Origin: Minisyncoccota bacterium
Lineage (GTDB): Bacteria > Patescibacteriota > Minisyncoccia > Phycocordibacterales > Phycocordibacteraceae
DNA length: 17,113 bases
Assembly: GCA_035531095.1 (NCBI GenBank)
Contig: DATKTL010000042.1
Location: forward strand, 1-17,113
Direction of reading: 5' to 3'
In this document: positions 3,112 to 16,660 of the stretch, piece by piece
Numbering within the stretch: position 1 is the first letter of the stretch
How the letters are laid out: each line of letters begins with the position of its first letter
Position numbers and translations under genes: made by a program
The notes under the pieces: model-generated
Seen by the model: only the letters and a program-made list of their open reading frames with translations
Database searches by the model: none
What the model was told of the DNA's origin: nothing

Positions 3112-3288
3112 ATGAAGGATTGCCGTTCGCAGTCGCATTACGAAAGTAAGCAGGATGACTGGCTCGACAAGCAGGTCTTTCTGGGGCTGACCTGGAACGA
3201 CATCCTGCTGTGGGGGGCGATAATCGTCCTTGTGGCAATCTGCTACGAGTACCTCCCGAGTTGGGACTTCATCTTCGGGAAGCGGTAG
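3112..3288 (+). CDS. Small hypothetical membrane protein (58 aa), below the ORF-track length cutoff
   Basis: MKDCRSQSHYESKQDDWLDKQVFLGLTWNDILLWGAIIVLVAICYEYLPSWDFIFGKR. GGAGAG sits 5 nt before the ATG, a near-consensus promoter lies upstream and a strong terminator follows directly. One TM helix. Confidence 0.45.
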   Translation: MKDCRSQSHYESKQDDWLDKQVFLGLTWNDILLWGAIIVLVAICYEYLPSWDFIFGKR

Positions 3289-3306
3289 CACGGCAGCAAA
3301 ATACAA

Positions 3307-3337
3307 AGACCCGGACGCATGCGTCCGGGTCTTTTTC
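3307..3337. terminator. Bidirectional rho-independent terminator (11-bp GC-rich stem)
   Basis: AGACCCGGACG-catg-CGTCCGGGTCT followed by TTTTT on the plus strand, with a weaker T-rich tract (ctttgtatttt) on the minus strand. It lies between the convergent small ORFs at 3112-3288 (+) and 3354-3527 (-). Confidence 0.7.
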
Positions 3338-3353
3338 TTATTACCCTCCTCCG

Positions 3354-3527
3354 TCAGGGGCGCTTGTGCTTCTTGTCGTACTGCTTCTGGCGCGTGTATC
3401 GCCGTATAGTGTGAGCCGTTGCCGACTCAAGCAGCGTCTTCTGAGGCGAACCGGCATGCTTCCTTGCATCCCTCGCTCTCTTCTTGTTCCGGGAGAGACG
3501 GCGAGTGATGCCATGTGACACGGGCAT
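3354..3527 (-). CDS. Small, highly basic hypothetical protein (57 aa)
   Basis: MPVSHGITRRLSRNKKRARDARKHAGSPQKTLLESATAHTIRRYTRQKQYDKKHKRP. AAAGGA lies 7 nt before the ATG at 3527, third-position GC is high like the neighbouring genes, and a terminator follows. The longer ORF-track version (to 3680) would overlap tRNA-Leu and is rejected. Confidence 0.45.
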   Translation of the reverse strand: MPVSHGITRRLSRNKKRARDARKHAGSPQKTLLESATAHTIRRYTRQKQYDKKHKRP

Positions 3528-3632
3528 AATGCGTCCTTTCATAAGACTTGCATGGGCTTCGGGACCTTCTGTTCCGAAAGCGATACTAGCACGCTGGAAA
3601 CCAAAAGACACCCTTACGGGTGTCTTAATTTG

Positions 3633-3717
3633 TGCGCAGGGGGAGACTTGAACTCCCATGCCCATAACAGGCGTTACCACCTCAAGGTAGTGCGTCTACC
3701 AATTTCGCCACCTGCGC
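3633..3717 (-). tRNA. tRNA-Leu (anticodon GAG), class II with long variable arm
   Basis: Acceptor GCGCAGG/CCTGCGC, 3-bp D stem GCG/CGC, anticodon loop TTGAGGT, long variable arm, T arm GGGAG-TTCAAGT-CTCCC. Confidence 0.9.
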
Positions 3718-5848: not shown

Positions 5849-5923
5849 CGGACGGTACTAGAGACTCCTTCGGAGGAAGCATAACCAGCTGGTTACAGCC
5901 TCCACCGACTGAGCTAATCGCCC
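5849..5923 (-). pseudogene. tRNA-like remnant: an intact-looking 5' acceptor strand and D arm, with non-canonical anticodon and T regions
   Basis: GGGCGATTAGCTCAGTCGGTGGAG(G)C matches a tRNA 5' third. It continues with the palindrome GTAACCAGCTGGTTAT (6- or 8-nt loop, no U33) and a CCTCCGAAGGAG hairpin instead of a GTTCGAATC T-loop. The 3' ACCGTCC pairs only imperfectly with the 5' strand. It fills exactly the tRNA-sized gap between tRNA-Leu(CAG) and tRNA-Val. Confidence 0.4.
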
Positions 5924-10020: not shown

Positions 10021-10494
10021 ATGGCCGCCAATGTCATCGCAGAATGGGAGGGGCGCGAATACGAGCATGACCCGAAGAGCGCCGATTGGTATTGGTCGCT
10101 CGGCATCATCACGGTCGCCGGCACTATCGCATCGGTCCTCTTCGGCAATATCCTATTCGCGATCCTCATCCTCGTCGCCGCGGCGGCGATCGCGCTCCAT
10201 GCCGCCCAGCATCCGCCGCTGCACCGATTCCGGCTCGTCGATACCGGCCTCATGATCGGCGACGATCTCTTCCCGTTCGACCGGATGCTCTCGTTCTCCG
10301 TCCTCCAAGACATTGAGGAGACATACCCGCCGATACTCTCCATCAAGACCGCGAGCTGGCATGCGCCCCACCTCATGATCCCGCTCGAAGGAGCCGACGA
10401 GGACGCCGTCCTCGCGCACTTCCTCGATCATGTCGAGGAAGAGGAACACCGCCACACGTTCGCCGACTTGGTGGCGGCGTGGCTCGGATTCTGA
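10021..10494 (+). CDS. Hypothetical membrane protein (2 TM N-terminal region plus soluble C-terminal domain)
   Basis: MAANVIAEWEGREYEHDPKSADWYWSLGIITVAG...ILILVAAAAIAL... then an acidic C-terminus (HFLDHVEEEEHRH). The ATG at 10021 is preferred over the track start at 9967. Confidence 0.65.
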   Translation: MAANVIAEWEGREYEHDPKSADWYWSLGIITVAGTIASVLFGNILFAILILVAAAAIALHAAQHPPLHRFRLVDTGLMIGDDLFPFDRMLSFSVLQDIEETYPPILSIKTASWHAPHLMIPLEGADEDAVLAHFLDHVEEEEHRHTFADLVAAWLGF

Positions 10495-10510
10495 TATACA
10501 GTAGAGTACC

Positions 10511-10645
10511 GCCCTCGTATGTAGGCATACTTGGGCTCGTTCGGAGAATCCGCCTACACGAGGACGTGCAGTCGCATTTCCACCACAAGGGCACTTCTTA
10601 GTTTCTAACTCGCTGTGCTCGTAAGAAACTAAAGTCGCTCACTTC
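10511..10645 (+). ncRNA. Structured leader element upstream of tRNA-Arg(GCG), beginning with a copy of that tRNA's first 8 nt
   Basis: GCCCTCGT at 10511-10518 equals 10646-10653. GTATG-TAGG-CATAC hairpin at 10517-10530. GCTCGTTCGG at 10535-10544 is identical to 16609-16618. A 12-bp helix joins 10513-10526 to 10552-10563. A 10-bp hairpin CTTAGTTTCT/AGAAACTAA(A)G spans 10597-10634. The tail TCGCTCACTTC abuts the tRNA. Confidence 0.45.
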
Positions 10646-10720
10646 GCCCTCGTCGTTCAATGGATAGGACGGCTCCTTGCGGAGGAGCTGATGCAGGTTC
10701 GATTCCTGCCGAGGGCACCA
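10646..10720 (+). tRNA. tRNA-Arg (anticodon GCG), CCA encoded
   Basis: GCCCTCG TC GTTC AATGGATA GGAC G GCTCC TTGCGGA GGAGC TGAT GCAGG TTCGATT CCTGC CGAGGGC A CCA. Confidence 0.9.
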
Positions 10721-10767
10721 TATTAAAAAAACGGCATGATGCCGTTTTTTTTAATATGGTGCCCTCG
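10710..10767. terminator. 58-nt near-perfect palindrome / bidirectional terminator that includes the last 11 nt of tRNA-Arg(GCG)
   Basis: CGAGGGCACCATATTAAAAAAACGGCA-TGA-TGCCGTTTTTTTTAATATGGTGCCCTCG, with A7 and T8 runs around a CGGCA/TGCCG core. Confidence 0.7.
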
Positions 10768-10802
10768 AGCACGCGCGGGGCGCGTGCGTGCAGGAATCGA
10801 AG
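10757..10802 (-). repeat. Inverted partial copy of the tRNA-Arg(GCG) 3' part (T-loop to CCA), interrupted by a 22-nt GC-rich palindromic insert
   Basis: Minus strand reads CTTCGATTCCTGC[ACGCACGCGCCCCGCGCGTGCT]CGAGGGCACCA, compared with the tRNA's GTTCGATTCCTGCCGAGGGCACCA. Confidence 0.6.
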
Positions 10803-10887: not shown

Positions 10888-10904
10888 TCCTGCCGAGGGC
10901 ACCA
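10888..10904 (+). repeat. Direct 17-nt copy of the tRNA-Arg(GCG) 3' end (TCCTGCCGAGGGCACCA)
   Basis: Identical to 10704-10720. It lies 92 nt upstream of the repeat-protein gene. Confidence 0.7.
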
Positions 10905-14150: not shown

Positions 14151-15440
14151 ATGTACGCCTTCATAAACACGCTCGTCGGCCTGTTGAAAAAGATAGTACC
14201 GGAACCGGTAGTGCGGCCTTTGCGCCCACTCTATCACCGGACGCTCGCCTTCCTCATGGCGCTCTCCTACGGCTTCCCCGCCAGGAAGCTCGTCGTCATC
14301 GGCGTGACCGGGACCAAGGGCAAATCGACGACTGCCGAGATGGTTTTCGCGATACTGCGCGCCGCCGGCCACAGAACTGCCCTCATCTCCACTATCCGCT
14401 TCGCGATCGAGGACGAGTCCGAGCCGAATCGCTACAAGATGACGCTCCAGGGCCGTGGCTTCGCGCAAGCCTTCATGCGCAAGGCGCTCGATGCCGGTTG
14501 CACGCACCTCATCATCGAGGTGACGAGCGAGAGCGTCCTGCAATATCGCCACCAATTCCTCGACCTCGATGCGCTCGTCGTCACGAACATCCAGAAAGAG
14601 CACATCGAGAGCCATGGCTCCTTCGAGAACTATGTCGCAGCGAAACGCGTCATCGTCGATACCCTCGCGCACTCGCCGAAGAAGACGCGCGTCCTCGTCG
14701 CCAATAGCGACATCCCCGAGAGCCGCGCCTTCCTCTCAGCCCCTGTGACCAGAGCGATCAGCTTCAGTGAAGCTGAGCTCGCCGACGTCTCGGGAGACAC
14801 CCGGCACGTCAGCTTCACCTATGCCGGCACGCGTGTCTCGCTCCCCCTCCCCGGCACCTTCAATGCGATGAACGCCCTCGCGGCGATGAAACTCGGCGAA
14901 GCGCTCGGTATCCCGATCGCCGCATCGGCAAAGGCGCTCGCAGCGCTTCCTCTCGTCCGCGGCCGCGTCGAGCACGTCGACGCCGATCAGGACTTCCTCG
15001 CCGTCGTCGATTATGCGCACACGCCAGACTCGCTCATGGCGCTCTACGGCGCCTTCCCGAAAGAGCGAAAGATCTGCGTGCTCGGCAACACCGGCGGCGG
15101 GCGCGACACCTGGAAGCGCCCGGAGATGGGGCGCATCGCCGATGAGATGTGCGAGCAGGTCATCCTCACGAACGAAGATCCGTATGACGAAGACCCGCGC
15201 GCCATCGTCGACGCCATGGCCGCCGGCATGCGCAGAAGGCCGACGATCATCATGGACCGGCGCGAAGCCATACGCGCGGCGCTTGCCGCCGCGCGACCGG
15301 GCGACGCCGTCCTCGTAAGCGGCAAAGGCACCGACCCGTTCATCATGGGCCCGAAAGGTTCGAAGATGCCCTGGGACGACGCGCAGGTTGTCCGCGAAGA
15401 GCTCGGGCGACTTCATTTCCTTAGGAGCGAAGCGAGTTAG
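14151..15440 (+). CDS. murE: Mur ligase, MurE-like (UDP-MurNAc-L-Ala-D-Glu:diamino acid ligase), N-terminally short form
   Basis: P-loop GVTGTKGKSTT, DYAHTPDSL, and GNTGGGRDTWKRPEMG resemble MurE signatures. The start lies 1 nt after the ruvA stop. Amino-acid specificity cannot be read. Confidence 0.75.
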   Translation: MYAFINTLVGLLKKIVPEPVVRPLRPLYHRTLAFLMALSYGFPARKLVVIGVTGTKGKSTTAEMVFAILRAAGHRTALISTIRFAIEDESEPNRYKMTLQGRGFAQAFMRKALDAGCTHLIIEVTSESVLQYRHQFLDLDALVVTNIQKEHIESHGSFENYVAAKRVIVDTLAHSPKKTRVLVANSDIPESRAFLSAPVTRAISFSEAELADVSGDTRHVSFTYAGTRVSLPLPGTFNAMNALAAMKLGEALGIPIAASAKALAALPLVRGRVEHVDADQDFLAVVDYAHTPDSLMALYGAFPKERKICVLGNTGGGRDTWKRPEMGRIADEMCEQVILTNEDPYDEDPRAIVDAMAAGMRRRPTIIMDRREAIRAALAAARPGDAVLVSGKGTDPFIMGPKGSKMPWDDAQVVREELGRLHFLRSEAS

Positions 15441-15482
15441 GAAATGAGAAGTGCCCATGTGGTGCGACTTCGCGCAGAAATT

Positions 15483-16495: not shown

Positions 16496-16660
16496 GCTCC
16501 CGTATCTTCGAAGACTCGATACGAAGGCTTCGCTCGGTGGAAACAAAATCAAGAAGACTTGTTTTGTTTCGCCTCGCTTCAGCTCCCGTATGGAGTACCA
16601 TACAGTGAGCTCGTTCGGCGAGAAAGAAATCGAGCGAGCTCGTTTCTTTCTGCCTCACTC
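16496..16660 (+). ncRNA. Two tandem structured units (86 and 79 nt) upstream of tRNA-Lys, each starting with the first 9 nt of tRNA-Lys
   Basis: GCTCCCGTA occurs at 16496, 16582 and 16661. Both units share head, short hairpin, GC(T)TCG(C/T)TCGG linker, a 13-bp hairpin with a bulged T and a tetraloop, then a GCCTC.CT.C tail. Sequence differences in the stems are compensatory. Confidence 0.55.

Follow-up and report, generated by a model that had tools for sequence, protein, structure and literature searches.

A putative head-copy leader cassette, interrupted by a second repeat, upstream of tRNA-Arg(GCG) in a Kaiserbacteria genome

The 135 nucleotides that precede tRNA-Arg(GCG) in a Kaiserbacteria genome, positions 10511–10645 of the window, are a composite of a worn type-I head-copy leader cassette and a 57-nt dispersed repeat nested inside it. 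By the window we mean the whole stretch of DNA analysed, 17,113 nt of contig DATKTL010000042.1 (C42 in our numbering); the genome behind it (assembly GCA_035531095.1, here G000) measures 0.5 Mb and is 86% complete. Proteins related to that of a neighbouring gene carry the names Candidatus Kaiserbacteria / Paceibacterota, which places the genome in the Patescibacteria (CPR). The copy belongs to a family of cassettes, and the eight nucleotides with which it opens, its head, are those of the tRNA that it precedes. We consider it probable that this is an insertion-polymorphic cassette carried as a 5′ leader, in which a first hairpin (HP1) would sequester the duplicated head and from which RNase P would release the tRNA.

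The tRNA itself occupies 10646–10720 (ARAGORN; 61.9 bits with the Rfam tRNA model). Its nucleotides 1–8 (10646–10653) are repeated as GCCCTCGT at 10511–10518, followed by AT and the hairpin GTATG-TAGG-CATAC (10517–10530). The 10-mer GCTCGTTCGG stands at 10535–10544 and is identical to 16609–16618, and the tail TCGCTCACTTC has its last base at 10645. All of this had been described in the original prediction, made from the window's sequence, and is borne out by it. The same prediction placed a 10-bp hairpin at 10597–10634; a hairpin is present, but its contiguous pairs number only nine (10598–10606 with 10624–10632), with an extra pair, C10597–G10634, across a bulged A.

The prediction held that these features form a modular element specific to its tRNA, a view open to dismissal as chance if upstream head copies were no commoner than expected and the leader words were generic in the genome. 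Tabulated over all 37 tRNAs found by ARAGORN, an exact repeat of the tRNA's own first eight nucleotides within 300 nt upstream occurs at six, where 0.42 would be expected from the rate of non-cognate head/upstream pairs. The tRNAs concerned are Met (twice), Ala-GGC, Arg-GCG, Lys-UUU (twice), Trp and Leu-CAA, and tRNA-Asp has an upstream head copy with one mismatch. Altogether the genome holds ten cassette units at seven tRNAs, and the distances of the head copies from their tRNAs are non-random, at −79 to −87 or multiples of this. As for the words, CTCACTTC is indeed generic overall (16 occurrences against about 15 expected, that is, not enriched), yet five of the 16 lie exactly at −8 of a tRNA; GCTCGTTCGG is enriched, with nine occurrences against about one expected, five of the nine in tRNA leaders. 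Because head copies exceed expectation and the leader motifs are placed at tRNAs, the dismissal fails, and chance similarity is excluded for practical purposes. The evidence supports a modular, tRNA-linked element whose head varies with the tRNA, of the same family as the units upstream of tRNA-Lys.

A complete type-I cassette is about 78–87 nt long. It opens with the head, after which come an inner hairpin, the head's complement and the motif TCGTTCGG; a second hairpin (HP2) leads to the tail TCACTTC, and the tail ends immediately before tRNA +1. In HP1 the 8-nt head and its reverse complement enclose an inner hairpin whose first base is A and whose last is T. HP1 is followed by a UC linker, by HP2 and by UUC directly before the tRNA. 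HP2 has a base of G-U, an internal loop UC/UC and G-G, then a bulge in the 5′ strand, a variable stem and an apex near G-AAGA-C. Folded individually, the units give z-scores of −4.5 to −7.7. To find further copies we built a covariance model, R1, from HP2 and its flanks only, which makes it blind to the head; in this genome it returned eight strong copies, every one in a tRNA leader. Over 93 copies, HP2 is 93% paired and 12 of 12 pairs vary on both sides, a result reached by none of 500 shuffles. The fourth pair of HP2 is mostly G·U (49 G·U against 14 G-C). Watson–Crick pairing in HP1 amounts to about 90% at head positions 1–3, 75% at position 4 and 44% at position 5. This covariation shows the predicted two-hairpin fold to be conserved, with compensatory changes. 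A search for 7–9-mers complementary to RNase P RNA among the conserved motifs found none; the assembly lacks the 3′ end of 16S rRNA.

We also considered whether the 3′ strand of HP1 might be a copy of the 3′ acceptor strand of the tRNA. This was rejected: six of eight Ala units carry C opposite G3, where the 3′ strands of the three Ala tRNAs that were read have T (G3·U70), so the HP1 3′ strand is the complement of the head and not a copy of the tRNA 3′ strand.

tRNA-Arg(GCG) is preceded by a gene that is conserved throughout the genus and whose stop codon (10492–10494) overlaps an extended −10 box, TGATATACA, at 10492–10500. The box can be read directly in the window and is kept before tRNA-Arg(GCG) in about 25 orthologous sites. 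It is, on this evidence, the likely promoter of leader and tRNA, which would then be co-transcribed. A generic promoter and terminator scan found neither; the promoter scan came back empty because it needs a −35 element, and the promoters here consist of a −10 box only. In empty orthologous sites the box lies about 9 nt from tRNA +1, and here it lies 10 nt from the upstream head, which thus takes the place, relative to the box, that tRNA +1 has in those sites.

Within the cassette, the upstream head (10511–10518) would form the 5′ strand of HP1. It is followed by the inner hairpin ATG-TAGG-CAT (10519–10528) and by the complement strand ACTTGGGC (10529–10536), which can pair with head positions 1–4 and 7–8 and is mismatched at 5–6. 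HP1 (10511–10536) has nine predicted pairs, and a mid-stem mismatch of this kind is typical of the family. In orthologues the complement strand reads ACGAGAGC in G011, where it is perfect, and ACTTGAGC in G017 and G077; in the Arg(GCG) lineage position 3 is altered jointly in tRNA, head and complement. By alignment and folding, 10537–10581 comprises the TC linker and a decayed HP2, whose 5′ base is GT-TC-GG and which reads GGAGAAT...ATTTCC, with an apex CACG-AGGA-CGTG at 10557–10568. The base motifs GU(UC)GG...CC(UC)AC are present; the stem has decayed, and the 57-nt insert interrupts the base. R1 scores the copy at 17.2 bits (E 0.3), against 40.6 bits for the G011 orthologue. The tail TCACTTC (10639–10645), whose AC closes the HP2 base in intact units, abuts +1 of the host gene. 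Compared with Rfam families (T-box and other leaders), 10511–10645 gave only chance-level matches below the gathering scores.

The original prediction treated the 135 nt as one element, which the alignments do not support: they point to a canonical cassette of about 78 nt and a nested 57-nt copy of an unrelated repeat. This block (10582–10638) consists of ACCACAAGGGCACTTC, a hairpin TTAGTTTCT..AGAAACTAA and AGTCGC. In alignment with G011, G034 and the two Met units of contig C3, its insertion point falls precisely at the junction of HP2 (whose 3′ end reads ..ATTTCC) and the tail (TCACTTC). It is missing from the orthologous cassettes of G011 and G034, and Met unit A, on contig C3, has the same block at the same internal position. 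Its consensus, ACCACAAGGGCACTTC, TTAGTTTCT..AGAAACTAA and AGTCGC(TC), defines a repeat family of its own, with matches in 24 of 101 genus genomes; in only two of the 19 contexts read (G005 and G116) does it adjoin a tRNA 5′ end. In G005 the block has replaced HP2's 3′ half, with the junctions at short runs of common sequence. Since the block is a separate repeat, it, and not the cassette, accounts for the supposed 10-bp hairpin and for AGTCGC in the tail. A second, diverged copy of the repeat (ACCACA..hairpin..AGTCGC, about 57 nt) was seen at 15407–15463 on the minus strand, overlapping the 3′ end of ORF 14151–15440.

A 12-bp helix resembling an acceptor stem had also been proposed, between 10513–10526 and 10552–10563. 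It exists as written, with a 2-nt bulge, but it is not the fold of the family. As a functional fold it was rejected for the family as a whole, because it excludes both conserved hairpins and has a predicted energy of −16.9 kcal/mol, against −23.1 kcal/mol for HP1 and HP2 together; the minimum-free-energy fold of the window copy retains HP1. The partner segment of the helix does not track the head change in G011 and G034 and has no counterpart in other units. We read the helix as a coincidence or a relic peculiar to this lineage.

The Arg(GCG) site was read in 30 loci, the window included, with G011 taken from a separate comparison. It is empty in 13 of the 30, for example in G116 ('tgatatacattcactatt|GCCCCCGT'), and carries a full cassette in G014, G087, G034/G103 and G011; the filled site of G014 has an identical 'attcactatt' ahead of the head. 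The cassette is accompanied by an extra module in G000 and G005, and remnants persist in G017 (HP1 only), G077, G118, G105 (only the 3′ half of HP2 and the tail) and G030. Different leaders were found in G062, G069 and G094 and longer spacers in G100 and G061, the tRNA is missing in G023 and G036, and the locus of G085 is at a contig edge. In all readable sites the promoter and its spacing of roughly 9 nt are unaltered, so that a filled site differs from an empty one by a cassette and one extra head. Depending on the species, the inner hairpin at this site is ATG-TAGG-CAT or ATC-TTCTCGGACTC-GAT. Together with presence and absence, this argues that the cassette has been gained, replaced and lost and is not a fixed part of the gene. 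The comparison of these orthologous sites shows insertion polymorphism, with presence, absence and decay.

Across genomes, R1 matched in 25 of 36 members of the same genus (Candidatus Kaiserbacteria), in two of 24 other families of the order, and, under strict filters and with a model specific to HP2, in no genome of a phylum-wide sample (150 genomes, 130 genera). The family is essentially confined to one genus-level clade of Kaiserbacteria. We retrieved 93 matches, 61 of which abut a tRNA start (offset 0 or 1). Upstream of HP2 in these 61, the cognate head is exact in 40 and has one mismatch in 15, so that 55 lie within one mismatch; non-cognate heads match exactly in 0.25% of comparisons. 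The head tracks the tRNA across species as well: tRNA-Lys(UUU) begins with GCTCCCGT here and with GCGCCCGT or GCGCCTAT elsewhere, each with a matching head. The upstream head is kept nearer to the tRNA sequence than the complement strand is to the head, which simple neutral decay does not predict.

Most of the other 32 matches fall into three groups. In one, what comes after the match is another unit of a tandem, a tRNA with an intron or the end of the contig. Another consists of ten CGCTCGG/CCTCGCTT variants (L078, L092, L108, L009:2682, L027, L105, L094, L111, L109 and L095). The third contains 'solo' copies, followed by only 9–11 nt that resemble a tRNA head. Among the variants, L078, L092, L108 and L105 (in G013, G031, G023 and G007) have the inner hairpin AAGCCC-TTCG-GGCTT and the motifs CGCTCGG / CCTCGCTTC, and appear to be placed after the D-loop (..AATGGTA) of tRNA fragments and not after nucleotide 8; in two of these, L078 and L092, the 70 nt read downstream contain a new promoter and repeat the 5′ part of the same tRNA. 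In the solo cassettes L002 (G010) and L031 (G005), only GCGCCTGTAGC or GCGCCTATAGC (tRNA nucleotides 1–11) follows, then a promoter and a protein gene, an arrangement conserved in two species.

Other tRNA-related sequences were seen in the same genome. After tRNA-Arg(GCG), in the region 10730–10801 and 10888–10904, there is a terminator-like hairpin with a T-run, then an inverted copy of the tRNA 3′ end (TGGTGCCCTCG ... GCAGGAATCGAA) interrupted by a GC hairpin, and after it a direct copy of the tRNA 3′ end, TCCTGCCGAGGGCACCA. Inverted 3′-end copies of a similar kind lie behind tRNA-Tyr, Asp, Glu and His. Between tRNA-Leu(CAG) and tRNA-Val(UAC), at 5904–5923 on the minus strand, GGGCGATTAGCTCAGTCGGT is a 20-nt near-copy of tRNA-Val nucleotides 1–20; it stands upstream of the real tRNA-Val, is followed by a hairpin GGAGG..CCTCC and a −10-like box, and amounts to a longer head copy of a different type. 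On contig C20 (about 3250–3480), tRNA-Ile(UAU) separates the 5′ half of a second tRNA-like sequence from its 3′ half; the acceptor strands of that sequence are complementary (CCGCCCC / GGGGCGG), and the arrangement looks like a tRNA gene within a tRNA gene. At 3632–3717 (minus strand) ARAGORN reports a 'tRNA-???' with a 2-nt anticodon (49 bits with the Rfam tRNA model); by eye its anticodon loop, UUGAGGU, suggests Leu(GAG), with a weak anticodon stem.

One set of cassettes lies outside tRNA genes altogether. In at least six genomes a cassette sits inside the 23S rRNA group I intron (L138, L140, L141, L144, L146 and L011, in G014, G005, G031, G123, G064 and G032, respectively), in a variable peripheral hairpin and beside native sequence that looks like a tRNA-Lys head. 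In 18 other genomes the intron is empty and has the native ..NNNCCCGTAG|AGACTGAA; the empty intron of G027 reads GCGCCCGTAG, the first 10 nt of tRNA-Lys. Filled introns contain, in order, the native look-alike, the inner hairpin, the complement strand, HP2, CACTTC, GCGCCCGTAG and the native AGACTGAA. The look-alike is GTACCCGT both in filled G014 and in empty G075, and GCCTCT both in filled G005 and in empty G015. The complement strand of the intron cassette matches the donor head and not the upstream copy. From these copies it follows that insertion is directed by an 8–10-nt sequence and not by tRNA function, that the upstream head copy is the recipient's own sequence, and that the cassette body and downstream head come from the donor. 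The case fits copy-insertion of a head-cassette-head donor at a head-like site.

Under the reading that we favour, the native promoter and tRNA-Arg(GCG) would be separated by a transcribed spacer that holds two small repeats, one nested in the other. The cassette would arrive just 3′ of the first eight nucleotides of a tRNA gene, or of a look-alike, and bring a second copy of those eight nucleotides, so that an intact tRNA gene is restored downstream and the old tRNA 5′ end, together with the cassette, would become a 5′ leader. HP1 would lock the duplicated head against its own complement, and the duplicate should then not compete for the 3′ acceptor strand of the tRNA. RNase P, whose type A RNA is encoded in the genome, would cut at tRNA +1 (10645/10646), and possibly also at 10510/10511 if HP1 mimics a minihelix, and the whole leader would be discarded, making the insertion nearly harmless. 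Co-transcription, removal by RNase P, the protective role of HP1 and the mode of spread are what we infer from the arrangement. As to the spread, we would guess first at copy-insertion mediated by the short head repeats on either side, whether by template switching or by short-homology recombination, possibly aided by a putative factor that reads HP2. No reverse transcriptase was detected in this 86%-complete genome, and we found no mobilising enzyme for the cassettes. Short-homology copying does not explain how one and the same inner hairpin came by complements that fit at least nine unrelated heads in the genus. The G·U at the fourth pair of HP2, the UC/UC loop and the mismatch at HP1 pairs 4–5 look as if a specific factor could recognise them, and could equally reflect a host function. 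A bolder version, which we hold only tentatively, is a 'leader intron': a selfish element that would home to the first eight nucleotides of tRNAs, write its target into both hairpin arms by templating, do no harm because RNase P cuts it out of each transcript, and depend on a dedicated factor that reads the G·U and the UC/UC base of HP2.

The features that could attract a factor are also what lends some weight to a cis-acting leader RNA selected by the host. Here the maturation, stability or quality control of particular tRNAs would be governed by the hairpins, through a bound factor or through the kinetics of folding, or the released leader would act as an acceptor-stem decoy, and the family would have spread through its usefulness. 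Strong compensatory conservation of HP2 over 93 copies agrees with such a role, as do the G·U conserved on the sense strand (49, against 14 G-C), the conserved UC/UC internal loop, the non-random mismatch at HP1 pairs 4–5, heads identical at 8/8 positions in 66% of units and the joint change of position 3 in tRNA, head and complement of the Arg(GCG) lineage. A useful leader is harder to reconcile with an Arg(GCG) site that is empty in 13 of 30 relatives and half-deleted in five more, with a window copy whose HP2 is degenerate (17 bits) and split by another repeat, with solo copies that have no tRNA at all and with a cassette in a 23S intron, where the neighbouring sequence resembles a tRNA head by chance. 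Nor does the cassette show an amino-acid pattern, and it is found at only seven of the 37 tRNAs of the genome. We judge host selection unlikely, though worth keeping in view. The idea of a purpose-built, tRNA-specific device, contained in the original prediction, is weakened by presence, absence and decay at the site, by the solo copies and by the copy in the 23S intron. Another alternative, that the units are decayed tandem duplicates of the tRNA gene itself, would account for a unit of 79–87 nt, close to a tRNA plus spacer, that begins with the first 8–9 nt of the tRNA. It is already contradicted and for practical purposes excluded: units at different tRNAs resemble each other and not their tRNAs, 10511–10645 gave no RF00005 match at E up to 10 and nothing with ARAGORN, and six of eight Ala units have C, not T, opposite G3.

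Less likely still than host selection, in our estimation, is a non-autonomous single-stranded DNA hairpin element mobilised in trans by an HUH enzyme (Y1, IS200/IS605 or RAYT-like), with the complement strand as a guide to the 8-nt target and insertion 3′ of it. In its favour are a pair of imperfect hairpins whose irregularities are conserved, a strand-specific G·U and an insertion point 3′ of a short sequence to which an internal segment is complementary; Y1_Tnp genes are present in 25 of 36 genus genomes, with up to 10 per genome. Among the 36, cassettes and Y1 occur together in 21, cassettes only in four, Y1 only in four and neither in seven, but this co-occurrence follows a subclade split and is therefore confounded by relatedness. 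Moreover, Y1 genes are also common in cassette-free families of the order (14 of 24), those of this genome (on contigs C3 and C44) are flanked by different hairpin repeats, and in the genomes compared Y1 genes and cassettes are never neighbours. Guidance by pairing would, in addition, be expected to bring more insertions at non-tRNA 8-mers than were observed. Known IS200/IS605 guides are 4–5 nt long and are read from the 5′ side of a hairpin; the cassette pairing is unlike these, with 8 nt from the 3′ side. On contig C44 (1925–2650), a Y1 (RAYT-like) transposase gene was seen between REP-like hairpins, GCGGAGGTT(T)AAACCTCCGC and then AAAGTACGC, which are a repeat family different from the leader cassettes.

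The cassette has partial counterparts among known elements. Like MITEs, REP/BIME, Correia, ERIC and Rickettsia palindromic elements, it is short, non-coding, multi-copy and hairpin-forming, insertion-polymorphic among relatives, flanked by a short direct repeat and tolerated in transcribed DNA. Unlike them, it lacks terminal inverted repeats, keeps strictly to one position and orientation at tRNA +1, always has the first eight nucleotides of a tRNA as its flanking repeat, with their reverse complement built in, and has no linked transposase that we could find. As regards MITEs, the left end (GCCCTCGTATG..) is unrelated to the right end (..TCACTTC), and there is an 8-nt direct repeat of the target-site type with empty and filled orthologous sites. 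With IS200/IS605, their miniature derivatives and REP with RAYT it shares strand specificity, imperfect hairpins in subterminal positions, an insertion point 3′ of a short target that an internal segment recognises by pairing, and a clade in which Y1 is abundant. It differs from IS200/IS605 in pairing 8 nt on the 3′ side rather than 4–5 nt on the 5′ side and in duplicating its target, and the Y1 genes examined are flanked by other repeats; repeats of the cassette flanking a cognate Y1 gene were found neither in this genome nor in the relatives compared. Genomic islands that integrate at tRNA genes likewise insert within the gene and keep it functional with a duplicated segment, but they use the 3′ end, extend over kilobases and encode an integrase, whereas the cassette uses the 5′ end, is about 80 nt long and is non-coding. 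Like ordinary pre-tRNA 5′ leaders and engineered hairpins that gate RNase P, it is promoter-to-+1 sequence that RNase P would have to remove. Leader structure can affect RNase P cleavage, as reported for a synthetic RNase P riboswitch (PMC7897497). Natural pre-tRNA leaders are not known to have two-hairpin modules conserved among unrelated tRNAs or a copy of an acceptor strand, and the cassette has both. A literature search found no description of comparable elements, and this hairpin cassette of about 80 bases is apparently undescribed.

If the favoured reading is right, some of the smallest bacterial genomes offer a niche for parasitic or neutral DNA, namely the few bases between promoter and tRNA, where RNase P would remove any insert. 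An element that carries both a copy and the reverse complement of the first eight nucleotides of its target is unusual and points to templated, possibly reprogrammable, insertion. In uncultured ultra-small bacteria (CPR), annotation of tRNAs and small RNAs can go astray at the cassettes and at the tRNA fragments near them, and the natural filled and empty alleles of the cassettes suit tests of how leader structure affects tRNA maturation.
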